Below, in pieces: positions 15,856 through 33,560 of a stretch of DNA of 33,560 nt. The notes beneath the pieces are model-generated. The model saw only the letters and a list, made by a program, of their open reading frames with translations. It had not been told where the DNA came from and made no database searches. A program made the position numbers and the translations under genes. Each line of letters starts with the position of its first letter. The first letter of the stretch is position 1. The stretch is from positions 1-33,560 of the forward strand of contig JBBQAJ010000006.1 of assembly GCA_038316195.1 (NCBI GenBank). Direction: 5' to 3'. Source of the DNA: Candidatus Saccharimonadales bacterium (GTDB lineage Bacteria; Patescibacteriota; Saccharimonadia; Saccharimonadales; JBBQAJ01).

Positions 15856-16936
15856 GAGTAACCGGCAAAATCGTGGAGGTTTTTAGTCCATTTACTCTCT
15901 GTTAATTAGCAATAAGTAATGTCGTAAGACATTACTTATACATGAAACAACGAGGATTTCGCTACTGCCCCACCTGCAGTACAAAGCTACAAAAGCGTGG
16001 ATTAACAGCTGCTGGTACCCAACGTTGGTTGTGTATTGTTTGCAGCAGGAGTGGTACAAAACCACGGCCAGATTTATCTCAAGCTTTGCTCTTGGAACGG
16101 TTTGTCGCCTGGCTACTAGGGAAACAATCCCAAGCAGACTTACCAGGTTCTGAACGCACATGGCGAGCCCAAACGGCTTGGTGTTGGAAGATTGTGCCGC
16201 CACAAATACACAGTGGCGAGATTTATCCGGTAGTAATCATAGACGGCATCCGGATTGGCAGTACAGTCTGCCTCATTGCTCGTACTCCTGAATACGTCAT
16301 TGGTTGGCACTGGGCACCATATGAATCCAGTGGCACCTGGTCTGAGCTGTTTGACCAGTACCCAGCTCCTAGCTTTGTGGTCTGTGATGGCCAGAAAGGT
16401 ATCTTACTGGGACTTAAGCGATCGTGGCCAACAACGGCAATACAGCGCTGCCATTTCCATGTCTGGCAGAATGTCCGAAGTAAGCTAACTCTGCATCCCC
16501 AAACTGAAGCTGGACAAGATCTCCTACGTCTGACCAGAGGCTTGTGGCAAGTCTACGGTCCAGAGCATATGACAGCTTGGCGGACTGGTTTCAGACTTTG
16601 GGAAGAAATATACTGTGACTTTGTAAAACAACGCACCTATCACCAAGAGCCAACAGCTGGCAGACGACGCTGGTGGTATACCCATGGACGGCTCAGAAGT
16701 GCCTACAACCAACTCAGGAAGTTGCAGGAGGATAACCAATTATTTACGTTCATTCATAACCCAAGAGTACCGATACCTAGAAACACCAATCACATGGAAG
16801 GAGGTATTAACTCCCAGCTCAGAACCAAGCTCAAACTACATCGAGGTATGAACGAAGAGCACCAAAGACGACTGGTTGAATGGTATCTTTACAGTCGAAC
16901 CGAAGACCCAAAACCTCCACGAAATTGCCTATAACC
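15856..16936 (+). mobile_element. IS256-family (IS1249-like) insertion sequence, ~1.08 kb
   Basis: Inverted repeats 15864-15888 and 16905-16929 (21/25 match); direct repeat TTCTTTTCC at 15847-15855 and 16937-16945; visibly higher GC than flanks. Confidence 0.9.
15942..16934 (+). CDS. IS1249-like DDE transposase
   Basis: N-terminal CPTC...GTQRWLCIVC Zn ribbon; IIDG, VVCDGQKG, IQRCHFH, NTNHMEGGINSQL. Confidence 0.93.
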   Translation: MKQRGFRYCPTCSTKLQKRGLTAAGTQRWLCIVCSRSGTKPRPDLSQALLLERFVAWLLGKQSQADLPGSERTWRAQTAWCWKIVPPQIHSGEIYPVVIIDGIRIGSTVCLIARTPEYVIGWHWAPYESSGTWSELFDQYPAPSFVVCDGQKGILLGLKRSWPTTAIQRCHFHVWQNVRSKLTLHPQTEAGQDLLRLTRGLWQVYGPEHMTAWRTGFRLWEEIYCDFVKQRTYHQEPTAGRRRWWYTHGRLRSAYNQLRKLQEDNQLFTFIHNPRVPIPRNTNHMEGGINSQLRTKLKLHRGMNEEHQRRLVEWYLYSRTEDPKPPRNCL

Positions 16937-16945
16937 TTCTTTTCC

Positions 16946-17176
16946 ACACATACAGGTAAGTCGACCTTAATTTTGCAGTATCAGCCTTCGCAATCAATGA
17001 GCCGAATATAAAGTTTACAATCGTTCAAGCTGGTTGGGCTAAGACAAATATGGATGGAATCAATGCAGATATTGAAGTAAGAATCATCCGTGGGTATCAA
17101 AAAGCTTTACAATACTATTGATACTCTAGAATCCGGAAAAATGTACAACTACAGTGGCTCACAAATGAATTGGTAA
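16946..17176 (+). pseudogene. Degraded C-terminal part of a short-chain dehydrogenase (CsgA/C-factor-like)
   Basis: LNFAVSAFA..IKFTIVQAGWAKTNMDGINADIEV, frameshift near 17080, then ESSVGIKKLYNTIDTLESGKMYNYSGSQMNW*; resembles the SDR PGWVxTDM...SGxFxxYxG..W tail. Confidence 0.7.
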
Positions 17177-22504: not shown

Positions 22505-23167
22505 ATGCAGAAACTAATACTTTCACAACCAACTCTTTTTCTTTTATTTGGATTCCCAGGTTCGGGTAAGACATTTTTTGCTAGACAAATCTGCGAAGAG
22601 TTACAGGCTGCACACGTACAAGGCGATAGGGTAAGGTATGAACTTTTTGAACGACCACGCTACGATAAACAAGAAAATCAAATAATTAGTCAGCTTATGA
22701 AATATATGACAGAAGAATTTCTAAAAGCTGGAGTTAGCGTAGTCTATGATGTAAACGCCATGAGAACTAGTCAAAGAAAAGCACTCAGGGAACTTGCGTT
22801 TAAGAACAAGGCACAAACTGTGTTAGTTTGGTTCCAAATGGATATTGATAGTGCATATGAACGCGTATCAAAAAGAGATAAACGCAAAACTGATGACAGA
22901 TTCACTGCTAATTTAGACAGACGACAGTTTGATTCGATAATTCGAGGTATGCAAAACCCCGATACAAGTGAAAGTTATATGGTTATAAGTGGTAAAAGAA
23001 CATTCCACACACAACGAAGCGCGACTATAAAAAAACTTTACGACATGGGACTAATCCAGTCAGAACAAACTATCGCTGGTCTCGCAAAACCAAACTTAGT
23101 AAATTTAGTTCCGAATAATAGTGGTGGTAGAGTTGACCCTTCAAGACGTAACATAACAATTAGATAA
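22505..23167 (+). CDS. P-loop kinase-like protein (AAA_33-type)
   Basis: GFPGSGKT Walker A; SVVYD Walker B; lid region RVSKR. Confidence 0.8.
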   Translation: MQKLILSQPTLFLLFGFPGSGKTFFARQICEELQAAHVQGDRVRYELFERPRYDKQENQIISQLMKYMTEEFLKAGVSVVYDVNAMRTSQRKALRELAFKNKAQTVLVWFQMDIDSAYERVSKRDKRKTDDRFTANLDRRQFDSIIRGMQNPDTSESYMVISGKRTFHTQRSATIKKLYDMGLIQSEQTIAGLAKPNLVNLVPNNSGGRVDPSRRNITIR

Positions 23168-25070: not shown

Positions 25071-26546
25071 TCATACTTTAGGAAGACGTGATGTTACATG
25101 CATAACTGGTATGCAGATATTCCTTTCCTTCCATTCGATGGTAAAATATTCATATTGAAACATTGACATGTTTTCAATGATTATTTCGCTTATTGCAGCA
25201 ATAGGAAATGTGACTAGTGCAATCAAGGTATTTTCTGGGTCAGATATTTTTACTATAGAAACATGTGAAATTATTAATATTAAGCATGTTGACGAAACTA
25301 GCAATGGATTAATATTTATAAGCCAATTATTCAAAATTAAAAATAGAAATGGGAATATAAAAAATACAAGGATTATCACACTAAGCAAGAACACCCACTC
25401 TGGTTTTTTGCGTAATTTTGGGTAACTGTTTCGAACAGCAGTACTAAGTTGTTGTTGGTAGTTTTTATTAGTGTATAATTCCAACTCATTACTGCTTCGA
25501 ATGAAACTATACTTGTCCTGTTTTACTAACTCTCTTGCAAAAAAACTTTCAGGTATTATTGTATTGCTTACTGCTCCAAAACCGCCAATCTTTTTAAGAA
25601 CTTTTTTTTCAATCATCCAACAGGTGCTCAGTACTGGTGGCTTGTTAAAAATCCTTCGTGGTAGCGATAGTTCCCACCAATATCGCATTGGCTGAATAAA
25701 AGCATCTGAAAATTTGCTAGAACTTTGAATAGGTAACACACTCAACATAGATTTATTGCGACTTTTTAGTATATTCACCATGCTTCTAATAGTTCGTGAG
25801 CCAAATCTAGCATCCACTCCACAAAATAGAATTAATTCACCGGAAGCTTCTGCGAAAAGTCTTTGATATGCTTGGTTTTTTGCTAACCATCTTTCTGCCG
25901 GAAGGTCGCCATTTATAAATCTAACACCTTTTTGAGCAAAACTTTTTATTATTTCATCAGTATTTGATTGAGAACAATCATCGAGTACTATTACTTCAAG
26001 TTTTGGATAATCGTTATTTAGTACTGATTCTAAACACTCTTGAAGAGATGTTGTTTCATTGCGTGCAGGGATGGCAACAGTTATAGTCGGCAATTCAGCA
26101 TCCGTCATATATATTTCAGGCATCCGAAATTTTAATTTTCTTAAATTGTTTTGCACTATAATAAAAATGCATACAGCTATAAAAAGCTGGAAATACGTTA
26201 CTATTTCTAAAACTTTTGATTTACTTAATAAAATAATCAGGCTAATGAGTACAACAATAGTTGGGTTCAAAACAAAAAGAAAAATACTAGTCCTTAGGGT
26301 CGCACGCCTCAGATATGTTTCATGCATACGATTCTTAACTATTCTAAGCATATTAAGAACTCTGAAGATTGCAATGGCGCCAACTGGTATGCCAAACAAA
26401 TATCCAAGTTGATAACATATCAAAGCACTTGTTATTAAGACAATAATTGCTATCGTTAACGCCATTAGACGTCGAATTTTCCAAGCAAAATGCAAACTAT
26501 ATAGAGCGCCCTCTAGTAAAAAAGAAATAAACCACAATTCAAACAC
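25071..26546 (-). CDS. Membrane GT2-family glycosyltransferase
   Basis: IPARNE, VLDDCS, WLAK; several hydrophobic helices at both ends. Confidence 0.88.
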   Translation of the reverse strand: MFELWFISFLLEGALYSLHFAWKIRRLMALTIAIIVLITSALICYQLGYLFGIPVGAIAIFRVLNMLRIVKNRMHETYLRRATLRTSIFLFVLNPTIVVLISLIILLSKSKVLEIVTYFQLFIAVCIFIIVQNNLRKLKFRMPEIYMTDAELPTITVAIPARNETTSLQECLESVLNNDYPKLEVIVLDDCSQSNTDEIIKSFAQKGVRFINGDLPAERWLAKNQAYQRLFAEASGELILFCGVDARFGSRTIRSMVNILKSRNKSMLSVLPIQSSSKFSDAFIQPMRYWWELSLPRRIFNKPPVLSTCWMIEKKVLKKIGGFGAVSNTIIPESFFARELVKQDKYSFIRSSNELELYTNKNYQQQLSTAVRNSYPKLRKKPEWVFLLSVIILVFFIFPFLFLILNNWLININPLLVSSTCLILIISHVSIVKISDPENTLIALVTFPIAAISEIIIENMSMFQYEYFTIEWKERNICIPVMHVTSRLPKV

Positions 26547-26622
26547 ATTTTTATATTAACTTTATATTATGAAAACAAGAAACTAAAATATCTAATATTG
26601 ATATGGAAATAATAATAACTAT

Positions 26623-26650
26623 TTGCAAGAAACTCATCTTGTGATATATT
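26623..26650 (+). promoter_or_regulatory. Candidate secE-nusG promoter
   Basis: TTGCAA 26623-26628, 16-nt spacer, TGaTATATT 26642-26650. Confidence 0.55.
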
Positions 26651-26656
26651 GACATC

Positions 26657-26684
26657 AGAGGAACCTACGCATAGGTTCTTTTTT
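26657..26684 (+). terminator. Terminator-like hairpin in the secE 5' leader
   Basis: GAACCTA-cgca-TAGGTTC followed by TTTTTT, then the AGGAG RBS of secE. Confidence 0.65.
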
Positions 26685-26698
26685 ATTAAGAGGAGATT

Positions 26699-27112
26699 AT
26701 GGCAGAAGACAAGACCCCAACTGGCAAACGCCAACTGAAAAAAACCTCAACTGTACGAGAGCGTGCAGAAAAATCCGGAGGAATAATTAAGCACAGAAGA
26801 CTTAAAAAAGCTCGTTCTTCGCTTGCGAAATTTGGTAAACCACTAAAAAGCGTTTCAAATACTGGACGTAAAGAGTATTACCTTCCTCTGCCTGATAATA
26901 AAGTCGGAAGGTTTTTCAACAAACGACGTCAAATAATACCAAGCTATTTTCGAAATGCTTGGCGAGAATTAAGACAAGTAGTGTGGCCAAGTAATAGAGA
27001 AACTACAAAACTTACTTTTGCTGTATTTATGTTTGCCATATTTTTTATGATAATAATTTCACTGACGGATTCTGGACTAGATAAAATATTTAAAAAACTG
27101 ATTCTGAAGTAG
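26699..27112 (+). CDS. secE: Preprotein translocase SecE with long basic N-terminal extension
   Basis: YFRNAWRELRQVVWPSNRET plus one TM helix; directly before nusG. Confidence 0.93.
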   Translation: MAEDKTPTGKRQLKKTSTVRERAEKSGGIIKHRRLKKARSSLAKFGKPLKSVSNTGRKEYYLPLPDNKVGRFFNKRRQIIPSYFRNAWRELRQVVWPSNRETTKLTFAVFMFAIFFMIIISLTDSGLDKIFKKLILK

Positions 27113-27122
27113 GAGAATTTAA

Positions 27123-27665
27123 ATGGTAAAAAGATATGATGCAACAAAACAATGGTACGCAATCCACACATATAGTGGTTACGAAGAGAAAGTAGCAGAA
27201 AGTATCCGCCAACGAACAGAGAGTCTGGATATGAAGGACAAGATTATTCAGGTTTTAGTTCCCAAAGAGAAAATGATTGAAGTTAAAAATGGTAAGAGAA
27301 AAGTTGTTGAAAAAAGAATTTTTCAAGGCTACGTATTAGTACAAATAAAAATGACTGAAGACGCATGGTATATAGTTCGAAACACTCCATCTGTTACTGG
27401 ATTTGTGGGTAGTGGAACAGATCCCACTCCAATAAGTGATGACGAAATAGATAAGATCATGAAACGAATGGGTCGCGACGAACCTAAACACAAAATTGAT
27501 TATAAAATGGGTGAAGTTGTTAACATTATAGACGGTCCTTTTAAAGGTTTTGATGGTAGCATAAGCGAAGTAGATCAAACTAAAGGTAAATTAAAAGTTC
27601 TAGTAAATATGTTTGGCCGAGAAACACCAGTTGAATTAGATAGCCTTCAAGTAAAAAGAGTATAG
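27123..27665 (+). CDS. nusG: Transcription factor NusG
   Basis: WYAIHTYSGYE, VRNTPSVTGFVG, KOW GPFKGFDG, MFGRETPVEL. Confidence 0.98.
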   Translation: MVKRYDATKQWYAIHTYSGYEEKVAESIRQRTESLDMKDKIIQVLVPKEKMIEVKNGKRKVVEKRIFQGYVLVQIKMTEDAWYIVRNTPSVTGFVGSGTDPTPISDDEIDKIMKRMGRDEPKHKIDYKMGEVVNIIDGPFKGFDGSISEVDQTKGKLKVLVNMFGRETPVELDSLQVKRV

Positions 27666-27858
27666 AGATATCCAAATAAAATAAACAAACTTTTAGTTTG
27701 TGCTATTAAAAGTATGAACTTGCAAAATAAAAATTGATGGAAAATGTACATATTTAAGATAGTAGTACATGTCGGAGCGAAAATAGAGTTCCGGGCAAAG
27801 ATTAGTGGCGCTATTTTGCAATATCTATTCTAATGATCGACAATGCATACGAACCAGC

Positions 27859-27887
27859 TAGACAACAGAGGTAAGTTATAGTACAAT
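27859..27887 (+). promoter_or_regulatory. Candidate rplK promoter
   Basis: TAGACA 27859-27864, 17-nt spacer, TACAAT 27882-27887. Confidence 0.6.
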
Positions 27888-27946
27888 CTATCGGTTACGC
27901 ACATGGATACATGCTTCAGTATCCATTAATGCAAGGAGAAAAGAAT

Positions 27947-28378
27947 ATGGCCAAAAAAGTTACAGCAAATTTGAAAATGAAGATCAAAGGAGGGCAAGCC
28001 AGCGCAGCGCCTCCTGTTGGAAGTACGCTTGGTCAATACGGAGTAAATATGATGGATTTCATAGGACCCTTTAACGAGGCTACTAAAGACCAAATGGGGC
28101 AAGACTTGACGGTTCATATAGCTATACATGAAGACAGGACTTTGAGCTTCAGAACCGTAGGGATTCCCACTGACGATCTTATACGTAAAGCACTAGGGAT
28201 ACAAAAGGGATCTGGAAAACCAAACACAGAAAAAATTAGTAAAAAACTTTCTGATGCTCAGTTGACCGAAATTGCAGAAACTAAGGCAATCGACATGAAT
28301 ACAGACGACATCCCTGCAGTTAAAAAGATTGTTTCTGGCACAGCTCGAAGCATGGGCGTTGAAATTGAATCAGCTTAA
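27947..28378 (+). CDS. rplK: 50S ribosomal protein L11
   Basis: MAKKV, APPVGSTLGQYGVN, GTARSMGVEI; start moved to ATG 27947 after AAGGAG. Confidence 0.96.
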   Translation: MAKKVTANLKMKIKGGQASAAPPVGSTLGQYGVNMMDFIGPFNEATKDQMGQDLTVHIAIHEDRTLSFRTVGIPTDDLIRKALGIQKGSGKPNTEKISKKLSDAQLTEIAETKAIDMNTDDIPAVKKIVSGTARSMGVEIESA

Positions 28379-30663
28379 GAAATATCCATATTTGATACAA
28401 CTGCTTCAAATAGCTCCTCGGTAGCAATCCAGATAGCCCTAGAAATAGGATTACTCTCAAACAGCTTTGAATAGTGCTTTTTGCTGTTTAAATAATATTT
28501 AACGAAACTAGCTTTAATTTGACCTCTAGTTACACCAACTGTTAAATCTCCAATATGACTTCCTGAACGGTCTATTGATTTTTTGATGATCTCTATATTT
28601 ATATTATTAATTCCTAGTTTTTCAGATTGATTTGCGTCTAATTCTTCTGATGTTTCGTGGGAGTGATTAGTTTGTTTAGTTTGAATCAGTACAGATTCTA
28701 ATACTTTCGTACCAAATTCTCGATGTATTATTCTTTTTCTTTTATTGCTTTCCTCAATTGATTCAGCGTCCTCAACAGAGTCATGTAGGAGTATTGAAAT
28801 TAAATCTTCTTGAGATATATCCTCGCCTCTTGCAAATATATTCAAAAAATATGCGAGTGTAAGAGGTAATACATGACCTTCATAATGATTTATGCCAGAA
28901 CGTCTTTTTTCACCGTTATGCCATTTATGAGCAAGCCTTAGAGCATTATGTAGTTTAGTTTCGCCGATTATCCAGTTTGGTATTTCAGCTTGTATTATGT
29001 CTCTAAATTCTATTTCAGAAACTTTCGATACTGGTAAAACTACCAAACTCAGATCTAAACTACTTAAGTTATCTGAAAATTTCATTTTTGAAGAAAATTC
29101 ACCGAGATCATGTGGTATTGCTAAGGTCGTATTATTTGCCGTTATTACTTTGTATAATTTTGAATAGTTGTTTTGTAGGTTTGGCCAGAACTCAAGCATT
29201 CTTATCTGAGTTTTCACGGCAAGTTCCCGTGTACCGTTTGTAAATACTTCTGCTCGCCTTATTACTCCATTTGCAATTTCTTCTGCACGTCTTAAATCTT
29301 CCTTTGTAGAAGGGTTAGATTTATATACCGCAATTATTGCTTTTCCAATTTTGTTACTAGTTAGCATTTTTTCAGTGACAATTTGAATTTCGGTTCCAAC
29401 GCGCGTTGATATCCCTAGTTTTTTAATCACAAAATTCAAATACACTGTTTCAAATCCAGATTCTTTAGGTTTCCCTGCAAGCATTTTTTCAGGTCGCCCT
29501 AATTTATCATATAGCTCATTAGCTTTTTGAATATTCAATACAATTGCTGCGGAATCCTCAGTATTTTCTTCATGGTTATTATTTTGGCGTCCTAGTTCTA
29601 CGACGAATTCATCAGTTATTATTCGGTATGTTCCATTTTTGTATTTGAACGCAGAAATAATATCGTTTATTACAACTCCCAATGATTCATTATCTTTGAC
29701 TACAATTCTATAACCTATAATATCGGCAATTTCATCATAGTTAGTAATACCTTTTCGAAGCCCCTTTAAGATCGTAGAACCCAATCCTTTAATTCTTTTT
29801 CTTTCTATGCGAAATGAAGGTTCGTCAATCCATGAATTCAAAAGTTGTTCTATAGGATCTATAATTGAAGCTGCAAGAGTTTGTATTGCTGTTATATCGC
29901 TAGTAAATTCAGGATACTGGATTTCCATATACTCCCAGGCACTTTGTCTTGCTCTTTCTGTTATGTTATCAAATTTTGGTCCAAACATTCTTAACGTAGG
30001 TATAAGTATTTCTTCAAGATTGATAACAGCCCTAAGTCTAATATTTTCATCGACGTTATTATCTTCTACAAGCGCAAGATTCCTTGCAAAATTCAGTAAA
30101 TATCCCTCAACATCTGATTCCATTACTAATTTTCTGCTTGATTCTAATTTTTCAATTGACGTTAAGGGCGCAAAATCTTTTACGAATCCTTTTGGCAATG
30201 CTTTGTCTGATTCGCCAGCAATTATGCTAGCTAAATCCATCCGTTCTTCCTCGGTGCCTTCAAATCTATCGTCGAGTAATATATTTTGCGCTGCATCAAA
30301 AAACCGGATATCTTCAGCTTTAACATTTTCAAAAAATGACATACCAACACCAACACACCAGGTGGTATATTCAGAAGTAGCACTCTCCACCATTAGTTTT
30401 TCTAAATAGTTTAGTGCTTCATCCCTGATTGTACTTTCACCTTTTATATCAAGATCAATATATCTCAACGCTAGTGCAACAGGAATCAATAAATTAATAA
30501 CATCTGTAAAAGATTCAGGCGAAACTATTTCAGTAGTATTTATTATATCTAAAACTACACTTGGATTTGGTAATATACCAGAAATTTCTAACCAATCATC
30601 ATTGAGCTCACTTGGCGAAAACTTTGGCTCTAAGTCATCAAAATCATAGGTGGAATATTCCAT
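28375..30663 (-). CDS. RelA/SpoT-like protein: divergent synthetase domain followed by C-terminal HD hydrolase domain
   Basis: Synthetase-like RIKGLGSTILK..DEIADIIGYRIVV..PKESGF..EIQIVT..VYK; C-terminal AHKWHNGEKRRSG..YEGH..LLHDSVED..FG..IDR. Confidence 0.8.
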   Translation of the reverse strand: MEYSTYDFDDLEPKFSPSELNDDWLEISGILPNPSVVLDIINTTEIVSPESFTDVINLLIPVALALRYIDLDIKGESTIRDEALNYLEKLMVESATSEYTTWCVGVGMSFFENVKAEDIRFFDAAQNILLDDRFEGTEEERMDLASIIAGESDKALPKGFVKDFAPLTSIEKLESSRKLVMESDVEGYLLNFARNLALVEDNNVDENIRLRAVINLEEILIPTLRMFGPKFDNITERARQSAWEYMEIQYPEFTSDITAIQTLAASIIDPIEQLLNSWIDEPSFRIERKRIKGLGSTILKGLRKGITNYDEIADIIGYRIVVKDNESLGVVINDIISAFKYKNGTYRIITDEFVVELGRQNNNHEENTEDSAAIVLNIQKANELYDKLGRPEKMLAGKPKESGFETVYLNFVIKKLGISTRVGTEIQIVTEKMLTSNKIGKAIIAVYKSNPSTKEDLRRAEEIANGVIRRAEVFTNGTRELAVKTQIRMLEFWPNLQNNYSKLYKVITANNTTLAIPHDLGEFSSKMKFSDNLSSLDLSLVVLPVSKVSEIEFRDIIQAEIPNWIIGETKLHNALRLAHKWHNGEKRRSGINHYEGHVLPLTLAYFLNIFARGEDISQEDLISILLHDSVEDAESIEESNKRKRIIHREFGTKVLESVLIQTKQTNHSHETSEELDANQSEKLGINNINIEIIKKSIDRSGSHIGDLTVGVTRGQIKASFVKYYLNSKKHYSKLFESNPISRAIWIATEELFEAVVSNMDIS

Positions 30664-30730
30664 ATATAATAGATATTATATAATGTATTGATGATAAAGC
30701 ACAATCTGTGATATTATAAATATTATTAAT

Positions 30731-30774
30731 TTGTGGGACCTCTTAAATATTGTATCGAGGGCTTGAACCACGAA
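30731..30774 (+). promoter_or_regulatory. L1-binding autoregulatory leader structure upstream of rplA
   Basis: GTGG-GA-CCTC...GAGG-GCTTGAA-CCAC two-helix/internal-loop pattern resembling the 23S rRNA L1 site, next to the RBS. Confidence 0.7.
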
Positions 30775-30784
30775 AGGACATCAA

Positions 30785-31819
30785 ATGGCAGAAACCATTA
30801 AGAAAACTGTTTCCAAAACAAGTAAATCGAGTACACAAGATTTAAAACTAGATGATAAAATTGCAAAAAAATCAGCAAATAAATCTAATACTGAGAAAAA
30901 GCAGAAAACTATCGCTACAACTGAACCGGTATTAGAGATTAAAACTGAACAAGTTGATTCTGAAAAAGATGACACAAATGTAAGAAAAGCTGGCAAAAGA
31001 AGCGAAAAGGGAATAAAAGAAGCCCTAAATAAGCAGGAAAAACTGGAACGACAAGCAAACACACTAAGCGAAAACGATACTGAACATAAAAAATCAACAA
31101 CAAAACACGTTCAAAAGACTAGGTCCAAATTAGAACGTAGTTCAAAAAATTATAGGAGAGTTTCTGAAATATTAGATTCCAACAAATCATATGGTATAAA
31201 AGACGCATTAGATTTGGCAGTCAAAACTAATCCAGTTAAATTCGATGCAACCGTTGAGCTTCATGTAAGATTGGGCCTTGACCCAAAACAAGCTGACCAA
31301 AACTTGAGAGATACAATTACATTACCTTCAGGCACTGGTAAGGCAGTTCGAGTCGCTGTCTTCGCTGAAGAAGAACAAATTTCAAACGCTAAATTGGCTG
31401 GCGCTGACATTGCTGCATCAGATGAGTTTTTACAACAGTTAGACAAGGGTATTATCAATTTTGATATTCTTATTGTTTCACCACAACAAATGTCAAAACT
31501 TGGCAAATACGCCAGACTTCTTGGTCCTAAGGGCTTAATGCCGAATCCAAAAAGTGGTACAGTAACTACTGATATCGCAAAAGCAGTAACAGAAGCTAAA
31601 GCAGGACGATTAGAATATCGTGTTGATAGCACAGGAATTATTCATGCAGGAATAGGTAAAGTGAGTTTTGGCTCCGAGAAACTATTGGTAAATGCACAAG
31701 CACTATTTGCAAGTATTAAAAATAACAAACCTACTTCTCTAAAAGGGGTATATGTAAAATCTGTTTTCGTAACAACTAGCATGGGTCCCAGTATACCAAT
31801 CGAAACCTCGGTAATTTAA
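30785..31819 (+). CDS. rplA: 50S ribosomal protein L1 with ~110-aa charged N-terminal extension
   Basis: KFDATVELHVRLG, LPSGTGK, LGPKGLMPNPKSGTV, TTSMGPS. Confidence 0.97.
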   Translation: MAETIKKTVSKTSKSSTQDLKLDDKIAKKSANKSNTEKKQKTIATTEPVLEIKTEQVDSEKDDTNVRKAGKRSEKGIKEALNKQEKLERQANTLSENDTEHKKSTTKHVQKTRSKLERSSKNYRRVSEILDSNKSYGIKDALDLAVKTNPVKFDATVELHVRLGLDPKQADQNLRDTITLPSGTGKAVRVAVFAEEEQISNAKLAGADIAASDEFLQQLDKGIINFDILIVSPQQMSKLGKYARLLGPKGLMPNPKSGTVTTDIAKAVTEAKAGRLEYRVDSTGIIHAGIGKVSFGSEKLLVNAQALFASIKNNKPTSLKGVYVKSVFVTTSMGPSIPIETSVI

Positions 31820-31843
31820 TATGTATTAAAAAAGATTTACTAT

Positions 31844-32335
31844 ATGCCCCATGTTCACGAACTTAACGATTTTACATCAAGTGGGTATATTGTTTTTAAA
31901 CAGAAGATTCTTTTAGTTCATCATAAGAAGCTAAAAGTGTGGATATCACCAGGAGGTCACATTGAATTGGATGAGGATCCGATAACGGCACTCTGGCGAG
32001 AAATTTTAGAAGAAACTGGACTAAACAAAAAGAACCTAGAGTTAATTTCAACTGGTCCATTAGTCAATGACTTAAAAACTACAAAAGCTTTCCATCCTCT
32101 TCAATCACCGTTTGCAATGTTTATAACAAATTACGACAATACGACAAATCACAAACATATTGATTTGTGCTATTTGCTAAAGTCAAATACTTTTGAGGTA
32201 ACATTAGAAGAAAGTTCATCACATGATATTGGATGGTTTACGCTTTTACAGCTTGATAAATTGTTTATAAATGGACACATGTTTCAAAATTCTTATACAT
32301 ATAGTAAATTTGCAATTAACTATTTTAAAAAATAA
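31844..32335 (+). CDS. Nudix hydrolase
   Basis: Nudix box GGHIELDEDPITALWREILEETGL; HKHIDL. Confidence 0.93.
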   Translation: MPHVHELNDFTSSGYIVFKQKILLVHHKKLKVWISPGGHIELDEDPITALWREILEETGLNKKNLELISTGPLVNDLKTTKAFHPLQSPFAMFITNYDNTTNHKHIDLCYLLKSNTFEVTLEESSSHDIGWFTLLQLDKLFINGHMFQNSYTYSKFAINYFKK

Positions 32336-32373
32336 AGTTTTTAGCTGGAGCTTAACTCTAGTACAATATGCTC

Positions 32374-33129
32374 ATGATTATATTGGGCATGACTGGACCG
32401 ATTGGCCATGGTAAAACAACGTTTGCAGATGCTCTAACTGAACTAGAGCCAAATACTGTGCATTTTGAATCTTCATTGATAATCGCAGAAGTTGCGAATT
32501 CTCTTCAGGCTGCCTTAAGTGATGTACCTGACCCATATAACGTAGAACGCTTAAACAATTGGCTAAGAGCACTACCGGTAATATTGCTTGAAATAGCACA
32601 CGTTCACTGTACGTTTGAACAAATCAAATTAGATCAAGTTGCAATGGAAGAACACCCAATTGAATTTCAAAAACTAATTCTTCATGTAGAAAACCTACAA
32701 CGCAGACCAGAACTAATGTCGCAACAGATTACAAAAGATAACAAGGAAAGCTACAGGCCATTTTTGCAATGGATAGGAGGATATCTAGTTCAACATATTG
32801 ATAGTGGTATATGGTATAACGAAATAGTTAGGCGTGTCAGACAAGCAGCCTCTGCCGGTGCACAGCTGTGTATAGTTGGAGGGCTTCGCTACCCAACAGA
32901 CGCTGCAATATTACGTGGAGCTGGTTCCATAATAATTAAAGTCTACCGGCCGGGACATTTACAAAGCGATCTATTAGACCCCACGGAACGTGAACGTCAA
33001 AATATAAAAGTGGACTGTACGATTATGTCTAATGGCACCGTTGCAGATGTAAAAGTGTTCACGAAATTGTTCTATGAAGATTTAAAAAACAACAAACTTC
33101 AATCCACCTATCACACAGCAGTTGTCTAA
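32374..33129 (+). CDS. Deoxynucleoside monophosphate kinase-like P-loop protein
   Basis: IILGMTGPIGHGKTT, RPFLQWIG, GGLRYPTD..IIKVYRPG resemble phage-type dNMP kinases; start 32368 or 32374. Confidence 0.7.
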   Translation: MIILGMTGPIGHGKTTFADALTELEPNTVHFESSLIIAEVANSLQAALSDVPDPYNVERLNNWLRALPVILLEIAHVHCTFEQIKLDQVAMEEHPIEFQKLILHVENLQRRPELMSQQITKDNKESYRPFLQWIGGYLVQHIDSGIWYNEIVRRVRQAASAGAQLCIVGGLRYPTDAAILRGAGSIIIKVYRPGHLQSDLLDPTERERQNIKVDCTIMSNGTVADVKVFTKLFYEDLKNNKLQSTYHTAVV

Positions 33130-33560
33130 GAGTTGTACGGCTCTTTTATTCCAAGTAATTTATCAACAGTGACAAAAGTAAAGTTCTGCTTTTTTAGTTC
33201 ATCAATTACTAACCTGACAGATTCAACAGTCTTGCTTCTATCACCACCTTTAGACTCCACTCCATCGTGAAAGATAATAATTGATCCAGGGTGAACTTTA
33301 TTCACGGTTTTTTTAGCAATATATTCTGCATTTGGCTGAAACACCTCAAAAGCATTACAAAATACACCAGAAATCATTATCATTTTATTTTCACGAGTAA
33401 CTTTAAACAACCCAGGAGACCTAAAAAGCCAGGGAGGTCTAAAAAACTTGGGCATTACGCCGACAGTATTTTTGATTGTATTTTGACAAAGTTCTATTTC
33501 ATAGCTCATCCGTCTTATGTAAAAACTATTCATAAATTTATGATTCATTGAATGATTTCC
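33126..33560 (-). CDS. Polysaccharide deacetylase (CE4/NodB), 5' truncated by window
   Basis: Frame is open to the window edge giving GNHSMNH; FFRPPW and GSIIIFHD motifs. Confidence 0.9.
   Translation of the reverse strand, partial: GNHSMNHKFMNSFYIRRMSYEIELCQNTIKNTVGVMPKFFRPPWLFRSPGLFKVTRENKMIMISGVFCNAFEVFQPNAEYIAKKTVNKVHPGSIIIFHDGVESKGGDRSKTVESVRLVIDELKKQNFTFVTVDKLLGIKEPYNS

Follow-up and report, generated by a model that had tools for sequence, protein, structure and literature searches.

The window analysed here, a 33,560-nucleotide stretch of a Candidatus Saccharimonadales genome (contig JBBQAJ010000006.1, positions 1 to 33,560), encodes a 762-residue RelA/SpoT homologue (RSH; P0001) in which a degenerate N-terminal HD hydrolase and a RelA_SpoT synthetase domain (SYNTH) are followed by a second, intact HD hydrolase domain at the C terminus. 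From direct observation of its architecture, homologies, residue conservation, distribution and synteny we infer its activities, substrate and regulation, and consider it probable that the protein is a ribosome-independent, bifunctional synthetase and hydrolase of (p)ppGpp-type alarmones whose hydrolase has been relocated to the C terminus. In the accessible parts of two RSH classification studies (PMC3153485, PMC7229694), the recognised types are only long proteins with the order HD, SYNTH and C-terminal regulatory domains (CTD), and small alarmone synthetases (SASs) and small alarmone hydrolases (SAHs), each with a single domain.

The gene and its modules, in amino acids (aa) where protein positions are given, are as follows.

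28375..30663, minus strand: whole RSH gene (pseudo-HD, SYNTH, linker, HD), one open reading frame (ORF) of 762 aa, open under table 11
29914..30651, minus strand: N-terminal degenerate hydrolase (pseudo-HD), aa ~5-250; structure alignment, profile, hhalign chain and motif table
29314..29904, minus strand: RelA_SpoT synthetase (nucleotide pyrophosphokinase), aa 254-450; Pfam PF04607, fold and invariant residues
28999..29313, minus strand: linker, aa 451-555, helices and one β-hairpin; predicted secondary structure
28384..28998, minus strand: C-terminal SAH/Mesh1-type HD hydrolase domain, aa 556-760; fold, profile and motifs

A small family with an apparently new domain order

The original prediction, made from the sequence of the window, had proposed a new architecture composed of a dead N-terminal HD, a synthetase and an appended intact HD, without a TGS or ACT tail. 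This architecture is real and is conserved in a small family. An exhaustive phmmer search over 1.84 billion representatives retrieved 39 proteins at E values up to 0.001, the query included, and the full-length homologues are P0002 (49% identity), P0003 (37%) and P0004 (30%). A Pfam scan covered 38 relatives, 17 of which have at least 600 residues; 14 of these 17 contain RelA_SpoT, 8 contain a C-terminal HD_4 or HD, and 7 contain both, SYNTH preceding HD. The SYNTH-then-HD order is common to about 20 proteins in the 1.84 billion representatives. A word-indexed search with the window protein returned P0002 as its sole match, a profile passed through the same index returned mostly classical Rels, a related-locus search with alignment A2 returned one locus, and phmmer found no match to full-length P0001 in the PDB.

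Conservation was followed in alignment A1 (18 family sequences), in a larger family alignment and profile, A3, and in a motif table that counts 19 true family members with identities of only 17-49%. Two further proteins taken in by A3, P0050 and P0052 (about 805 aa), contain RelA_SpoT only, with a synthetase at about aa 250-414 and long flanks without a Pfam match. They lack the C-terminal HD motifs and were rejected as family members; they are left out of every member count and are still present in the alignment behind the fold. The AF2 model of the 762-aa protein built on the family alignment has a predicted local distance difference test score (pLDDT) of 82.5 and a predicted template modelling score (pTM) of 0.80, and its best PDB matches in Foldseek are full-length SpoT and Rel.

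The C-terminal HD domain

The identification of the C-terminal domain as an SAH/Mesh1-type HD with intact metal ligands and an intact ED pair is firmly supported. The HDxxED..D pattern given for it in the original prediction is present in the translation, as HDSVED at aa 627-632 and IDRSGSH at aa 697-703, and the retained residues are R587, H597, H627-D628, E631-D632, K695 and D698-R699. Following the RelSeq and Mesh1 literature, we take the H, HD and D residues to be Mn2+ ligands and the ED pair to be catalytic. H597, H627-D628, E631 and D698 are found in 19 of 19 members, and position 632 is D in 14 of 19.

Against the HD_4 model (PF13328), several relatives score above the cut-off, whereas the window protein by itself stays below it: the C terminus of P0001 alone scores 13 bits (E 0.085) against a cut-off of 27.2, which is passed by P0013 (45.2), P0025 (30.2), P0015 (29.4) and P0020 (28.1). 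Likewise, this segment alone gives weak matches in the PDB (7qoe, E 0.12). The A3 profile matches the SAHs 7qoe (3.5e-11), Mesh1 3nqw (2.2e-8) and RelH 7qoc (1.2e-7), and its positions 543-686 align to the HD of Thermus thermophilus Rel (6s2t residues 23-151). The predicted structure agrees with the Mesh1/SpoT type proposed at the outset. In VIA-align, model residues 556-760 superpose on RelH 7qod with Z 17.4 and a root-mean-square deviation (rmsd) of 2.6 Å over 183 of 192 residues, residues 562-754 on MESH1 5vxa with Z 17.1 and 2.9 Å (173/178 aligned), and residues 548-762 on the SpoT HD 7qpr with Z 16.9 and 3.7 Å (191/687 aligned); the (p)ppApp hydrolase 7smg matches the C-terminal HD with Z 13.2.

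The synthetase domain

Pfam PF04607 recognises RelA_SpoT at aa 289-450 with 30.1 bits against a cut-off of 27, which places the protein in the RSH superfamily as had been predicted, and a six-frame search of the genome finds the domain at the same place (29314-29799). Model residues 254-446 superpose on SAS1 (5ded; Z 14.4, rmsd 2.8 Å, 147/190 aligned), and a clade-specific insertion lies inside the synthetase at about aa 330-395. The motifs on which the prediction was based are all in the translation: R290-I-K292, DIIGYRIV (aa 314-321), GFETVY (aa 403-408), EIQIVT (aa 425-430) and AIIAVYK (aa 442-448). We take the reference motif set to be RxKxxxSxxxK, DxxG/AxR, GYxxxH, ExQxxT and YK, with RelSeq numbering (Hogg 2004).

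Eight synthetase residues (R290, K292, S296, K300, D314, G403, E425 and Q427) are invariant across the 19 family members, and G317, R319, T430, Y447 and K448 are also present in P0001. Over the 18 sequences of A1 the invariant positions include K292, S296, K300, D314, G403, E425 and Q427 together with R587, H597, H627, D628, E631, K695 and D698 of the hydrolase; in A3, K292, S296, K300, D314, G403, E425, Q427, R587, D628 and D698 remain invariant, and R290, H597, H627, E631 and K695 are nearly so. When the A3 profile is aligned to Rel, the invariant synthetase and hydrolase positions fall on Rel motif residues. The conserved D and E presumably serve in Mg2+ and ATP binding, as in the RelSeq literature. 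Because the core residues are invariant among members of 17-49% identity, we argue that the catalytic centre probably works.

Decay of the N-terminal hydrolase

The N-terminal region had been described as keeping traces of an RSH hydrolase and linker and no HD, a description that the motif table bears out: at the ligand positions, neither H nor D occurs in the window clade. The two quoted traces, YLLNFARNL (aa 188-196) and EEILIPTLRMFG (aa 217-228), are present in the translation; profile alignment to T. thermophilus Rel pairs the first with KLADRLHN and the second with IYAPLAHRLG, and the corresponding aa 184-232 is the best-kept part of the pseudo-HD. In this alignment, A3 positions 185-416 cover Rel residues 134-355, a stretch that runs from the final HD helices (KLADRLHN) through the IYAPLAHRLG linker into the synthetase. 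Model residues 5-477 superpose on the N-terminal domain of Bacillus subtilis Rel (8acu_B residues 6-347; Z 16.4, rmsd 5.8 Å, 306/331 aligned).

Distant members of the family still read R...HN...LHDxVDH...DNLxNP in this region. Their N termini (12 sequences) align in hhalign with the first 260 residues of 21 classical Rels at 96.2% (E 2.7e-9, 206 columns), which pairs HDxVDH with HDxxED and DNLxN with DRLHN, and the window clade (4 sequences) in turn aligns with the distant-clade N terminus at 95.6% (E 1.2e-8, 236 columns); the window clade by itself reaches 0.1% against the classical Rel N terminus. The H-D dyad is kept in 11 of the 17 members that have an N-terminal region and is absent from P0001-P0004, P0027 and the G355 protein. 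As the distant clade keeps HDxVDH and the window clade keeps no ligands, we read the sequences as a graded loss of the ancestral hydrolase site within the family, from HDxxED through HDxVDH to the disappearance of all ligands.

The A3 profile favours long RSHs (T. thermophilus Rel N-terminal domain, E 7.8e-31; RelSeq 1vj7, 7.9e-28) over other proteins (SASs, 5.8e-11 or weaker; FaRel2, 2e-6; CapRel, 4.9e-5). Judged from these alignments, the N-terminal half is descended from the catalytic region of long RSHs: the HD-then-SYNTH layout joined by a helical linker is there, with the HD degenerate. In RelA, too, the N-terminal HD is a catalytically dead scaffold.

As had been stated for the tail, no Pfam TGS or ACT match occurs in P0001 at E values up to 10, and there is no Pfam TGS match in the 38 relatives. 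The regulatory region of long RSHs (TGS, helical, ZFD/CC and ACT/RRM domains) was not found in P0001. The linker between SYNTH and the C-terminal HD (aa 451-555) has pLDDT values mostly between 63 and 95. By eye, the pattern V-I-T...L-A-I-P within it resembles TGS; a TGS remnant was rejected on the lack of a Pfam TGS match and on hhalign, in which aa 440-565 reach 0.7% against the post-synthetase region of 17 long Rels, the linker not having been folded or fold-searched alone. The NCBIfam model TIGR00691 (spoT_relA; cut-off 499 bits) has no match in P0001 and scores far below cut-off in relatives (P0013, 59.5; P0007, 49.7; P0004, 25.9 bits).

Origin of the architecture

Ranked by a hidden Markov model (HMM) of the family C-terminal HD, stand-alone HD proteins of 240-290 aa score 1e-31 to 1e-24 over the full HMM, against 1e-20 to 1e-8 for the HDs of classical Rels. 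These stand-alone proteins (P0008, P0012, P0016, P0022, P0024, P0028, P0035, P0036 and a 273-aa ORF in phylum genome G251, L011:1336-2157, plus strand) carry an N-terminal extension of about 55-75 aa, and are the nearest relatives of the C-terminal module and candidate fusion partners. In an IQ-TREE phylogeny of 65 HD segments (22 from the family, 21 from short stand-alone proteins and 22 from classical Rels, with the G030 duplicates P0004 and L003 dropped), the 22 classical Rel HDs form one 100/100 clade that contains none of the 22 family HDs. Tandem duplication of a resident Rel as the source of the second HD is disfavoured by this exclusion and by the HMM ranking.

In this phylum the usual RSH is a CTD-less Rel, encoded by an ORF of about 465-550 aa, and the nearest Atlas clusters have 510-553 aa and belong mostly to Candidatus Saccharimonadota. 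The sizes add up: a Rel core of about 500 aa and an SAH-like protein of about 250 aa give the 740-860 aa of the family. Given the HMM ranking, the Rel-excluding clade and these sizes, fusion of a Rel core with an SAH appears favoured over tandem duplication. Two features of the tree count against a simple account, however: it is unrooted, with rows picked by similarity to the family HMM, and the family HDs fall into two groups that need two changes, with one 406-aa row nested, so that they form no clean clade.

In the scenario we propose, the starting point would be the Rel usual in the phylum, a core of about 500 aa (HD-SYNTH) without a CTD, whose C terminus would have become fused to an SAH-like hydrolase of about 250 aa that had stood alone. 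The N-terminal HD inherited from this core would then have lost its catalytic ED pair first, as in the HDxVDH of the distant clade, and the window clade would subsequently have lost all metal ligands, turning the domain into a RelA-like pseudo-HD scaffold.

Distribution and genomic context

We queried 41 genomes of the genus and order with P0001 and 401 genomes of the phylum with the A1 profile (a tally that includes the unpublished genome G193), and compared gene contexts in four genomes. In the window genome itself (G000; 887,939 bases in 24 contigs, 98.9% complete), the RSH gene is the sole match to RelA_SpoT and to the A1 profile, and HD_4 has none; G030 and G355 likewise have the family protein as their sole RelA_SpoT match and none to HD_4. 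The three-module protein occurs in 3 of the 41 genus and order genomes, namely G000, G030 (E 1.5e-97) and G033, where HMMs confirm the architecture, and G036 has just a 246-aa SAH-like ORF. A1-profile matches occur in 294 of the 401 phylum genomes. The matches listed, outside which lie 410 weaker ones, are classical HD-then-SYNTH Rels or separate HD proteins, and the only near-full-length ones among them are the top two, G355 (E 1e-234) and G000.

The gene is inserted, on the opposite strand, in a conserved secE-nusG-rplK-rplA cluster.

26699-27112: secE, same cluster
27123-27665: nusG, same cluster
27947..28378, plus strand: rplK (L11), Pfam Ribosomal_L11_N and L11; convergent with the RSH gene
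30664..30784, no strand: divergent intergenic region of 121 nt between the RSH and rplA starts; sequence
30785..31819, plus strand: rplA (L1), Pfam Ribosomal_L1 on aa 147-335; divergent from the RSH gene

The 3′ ends of rplK and the RSH gene overlap by 4 nt, and GC content along the gene (0.33-0.37) is like that of the rest of the window. In G030 the RSH gene is likewise antisense between rplA and rplK, in G033 it is antisense and adjoins rplK, and the 5.4-kb G355 locus shows no rplK. The position next to rplK is thus common to three families of the order (those of the window, G030 and G033). In the window-type clade, placement at rplK/rplA seems to go back to the ancestor, the gene having since been lost many times, and transfer of the RSH gene by recombination through the conserved flanks is possible.

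Predicted function and alternatives

In a bifunctional alarmone enzyme of the kind we favour, the SYNTH domain would transfer pyrophosphate from ATP to the 3′-OH of a purine nucleotide and the C-terminal HD would remove it again. The balance between making and breaking would depend on contacts within the molecule, on ligands or on the level of expression; sensing of the ribosome or of uncharged tRNA could not set it, because TGS, ZFD and ACT domains are lacking. Speculatively, the conserved position, in which the gene converges on rplK and diverges from rplA, may tie its expression in an inverse sense to the transcription of ribosomal proteins. L11 is the ribosomal protein needed for RelA activation.

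Several observations weigh against this reading. Beyond the sub-threshold HD_4 score of P0001, the window clade has S for the N of DRxxN, and in the synthetase of P0001 the G-loop GYxSxH reads GFETVY (Y404 to F, S to T and H408 to Y), EIQIRT reads EIQIVT, the R being present in just 1 of 19 members, and HWxYK reads IAVYK. We presume that the deviating positions (Y to F and H to Y in the G-loop, R to V in EIQIRT) contact the substrate, and the deviations could leave room for a different substrate or activity. The rarity of the architecture in the genus and order and among the phylum matches listed also counts against the reading, as does its absence from close relatives: none of three same-genus genomes (97-100% complete) has a RelA_SpoT or HD_4 match, and all three have rplK followed directly by rplA, so the gene is dispensable in the genus. 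Furthermore, it evolves fast, identity between G000 and G030 being 84% for L11, 69% for L1 and 30% for the RSH. Patchiness, dispensability and fast evolution suit an accessory gene or a conflict gene no less than a regulator. Finally, promoter-like sites at the RSH/rplA locus are at chance level (13 found, 15.2 expected from shuffles) and the same scan found no terminator-like site, which leaves the idea of antisense regulation without direct support.

A bolder version, which we put forward only tentatively, would see in the family a third multidomain RSH class, pseudo-HD-SYNTH-SAH, in which Patescibacteria would have given up ribosome-coupled control of the stringent factor in favour of a self-contained enzyme, built from a Rel core and an SAH, that both makes and degrades alarmones. 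Its placement between rplK and rplA would wire its expression inversely to theirs, through interference or antisense transcription, so that the rate of ribosome synthesis would be sensed instead of uncharged tRNA; or the SAH would act as a cis-antitoxin that holds a growth-arresting synthetase until a trigger arrives.

A related alternative, which we judge unlikely, would have the protein as a self-neutralised toxic synthetase: a SYNTH domain like that of toxic SASs (toxSASs), producing (p)ppApp or (p)ppGpp or modifying tRNA, with the SAH as its type IV antitoxin in cis, employed against phages or in a conflict of the episymbiont with its host. The patchy distribution, the absence from congeners, divergence faster than that of the flanking genes and the closeness of the C-terminal HD to stand-alone SAH-like proteins would all suit such a role, and the distant member P0013 weakly matches the PADLOC candidate PDC-S33 (E 1.4e-5). 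Further, in the accessible parts of PMC7229694, SAHs neutralise all tested toxSASs. However, PADLOC has no match for P0001 or P0004, the neighbours are core ribosomal genes, with no bicistron resembling a toxin-antitoxin (TA) operon and no mobile element, base composition is unremarkable, the chromosomal position is kept across three families, and the synthetase comes with a core of pseudo-HD and linker of the long-RSH type and matches long RSHs with much higher scores than FaRel2 or CapRel. The fused toxin-antitoxin logic floated in the original prediction therefore found no support in these comparisons.

Alternatively, the same architecture might perform other chemistry, with a non-guanosine product such as (p)ppApp, or with a C-terminal HD that serves metabolism independently of the synthetase, for instance as an NADPH phosphatase like Mesh1. 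The three G-loop changes, the loss of the EIQIRT arginine across the family and the N-to-S change in DRxxN point this way, and the structure of MESH1 with NADPH (5vxa) and the (p)ppApp hydrolase 7smg match about as well as ppGpp hydrolases, although fold similarity does not distinguish substrates. An aromatic residue is retained, however, at the stacking position of the G-loop, and H408 is kept in 16 of 19 members; the H-to-Y change is confined to P0001 and P0002 (2/19) and thus recent. We consider this alternative improbable. Core synthetase residues appear to be kept and substrate-side residues altered, so that specificity may differ.

That the synthetase is dead, leaving just a hydrolase with two vestigial domains, is less credible still. 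The Pfam score is barely over its cut-off, phmmer of the SYNTH segment against the PDB finds no match and several classical motifs deviate, but the fold is confidently predicted, and motif residues that stay invariant in so divergent a set of proteins are unexpected for a dead domain and speak against the earlier label of pseudo-synthetase. An assembly chimera or mis-joined ORF, a concern raised with the original prediction, can be dismissed almost entirely, as full-length homologues come from independent assemblies, G030 has the same locus layout, and Logan contigs of runs X1 and X2 (sediment metagenomes of one study, which may be the source sample) bridge every junction without a difference, spanning 28321-28646 (3′ ends of rplK and the RSH gene), 28627-29394 (SYNTH/HD) and 29457-31031 (5′ half of the RSH gene into rplA).

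The family is of interest in several respects. RSH enzymes are among the best-studied stress regulators of bacteria, and this family constitutes a natural experiment in domain replacement, with a graded series of hydrolase loss. Structural and allosteric studies would gain from it a simple bifunctional enzyme that does without the ribosome, and it would be the one point of access to alarmone signalling in bacteria that are ultra-small and probably depend on a host, and close relatives of which have no RSH at all. The conserved insertion between the genes for L11 and L1 is in itself unusual.

Other features of the window

The listed rplK ORF begins at 27911 (27911-27946, plus strand); homologues begin at MAKKV, at 27947, which is probably the true start and gives a longer nusG-rplK spacer. 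The Pfam domain of L1 (aa 147-335) is preceded by about 145 extra N-terminal residues with a high share of Lys, Glu and Ser (30785-31219, plus strand); the L1 ORFs of relatives are of similar length (320-373 aa within the genus, 345 aa in G030). Small unrelated ORFs of 96-120 aa lie in the nusG-rplK or the rplK-rplA gap in other genomes of the genus and order (L007:2592-2882, minus strand; L008:408-713, plus; L029:7851-8213, minus), and the nusG-rplK-rplA cluster seems to tolerate insertions.

Downstream of rplA are a NUDIX hydrolase (31844-32335, plus strand) and a DNMK-like nucleotide kinase (32368-33129, plus strand). NUDIX enzymes degrade (p)ppGpp in some bacteria. The pair also lies downstream of rplA in the same-genus genome G002, which lacks an RSH, so it does not depend on one. 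Elsewhere, an AAA_33/Zeta-toxin-like P-loop kinase (22505-23167, plus strand; Pfam Zeta_toxin, E 2e-6) adjoins a YgjP-like metallopeptidase and a PAS histidine kinase. The stretch 16001-17000 stands out by a GC content of up to 0.48, other parts having about 0.35, with an overlapping ORF pair at 15892-16934; this stretch could be an RNA gene or foreign DNA. An Rfam scan of 26000-33560 gave no match.

Comparison with known systems

Our literature search, whose scope lay outside figures, some supplements and subscription journals, returned no description of the pseudo-HD-SYNTH-HD order or of RSHs in Patescibacteria. The terms Saccharibacteria, Saccharimonas, 'candidate division' and Parcubacteria do not occur in three supplementary files of PMC7229694, the portion of that study's supplement covered here.

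Four known systems come close. Long RSHs (T. thermophilus Rel, 6s2t; B. subtilis Rel, 8acu and 6yxa; RelSeq, 1vj7) have the same two-domain N-terminal 450 aa, linker helices and synthetase motifs. In place of their TGS/helical/ZFD/ACT-RRM tail, which we did not detect in P0001, the window protein has a second, intact HD at its C terminus, and the spoT_relA model that defines long RSHs at 499 bits has no match in P0001 and reaches 26-60 bits in relatives. The SAHs (RelH of Corynebacterium glutamicum, 7qod; Leptospira, 7qoe; Pseudomonas aeruginosa, 6yvc; Mesh1, 3nqw and 5vxa) have the fold of the C-terminal 205 aa over nearly their entire chain (Z 16-17.4, rmsd 2.5-3.0 Å) and share its R...H...HDxxED...D residues, and the HD tree puts the family HDs nearest to stand-alone SAH-like proteins. 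Unlike those, the domain of P0001 is not stand-alone but fused downstream of a synthetase, and differs in the serine of DRxxN in the window clade.

The type IV toxSAS-SAH pairs, such as FaRel/ATfaRel as described in the accessible text of PMC7229694, likewise join a synthetase with an SAH-type hydrolase able to undo its product. In those systems, a small single-domain synthetase sits with its antitoxin in an operon of two or three genes, whereas P0001 is one polypeptide with a long-RSH pseudo-HD, has no PADLOC match and no bicistronic TA locus, and is flanked by rplK and rplA on the opposite strand. Last, the CTD-less short Rels of Patescibacteria and Saccharimonadota (about 465-550 aa) come from the same phylum and also lack the ribosome-sensing CTD. 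They differ in their classical order, with an N-terminal HD that HD_4 detects and no C-terminal HD, and are the likely ancestor of the N-terminal 450 aa of the protein described here.

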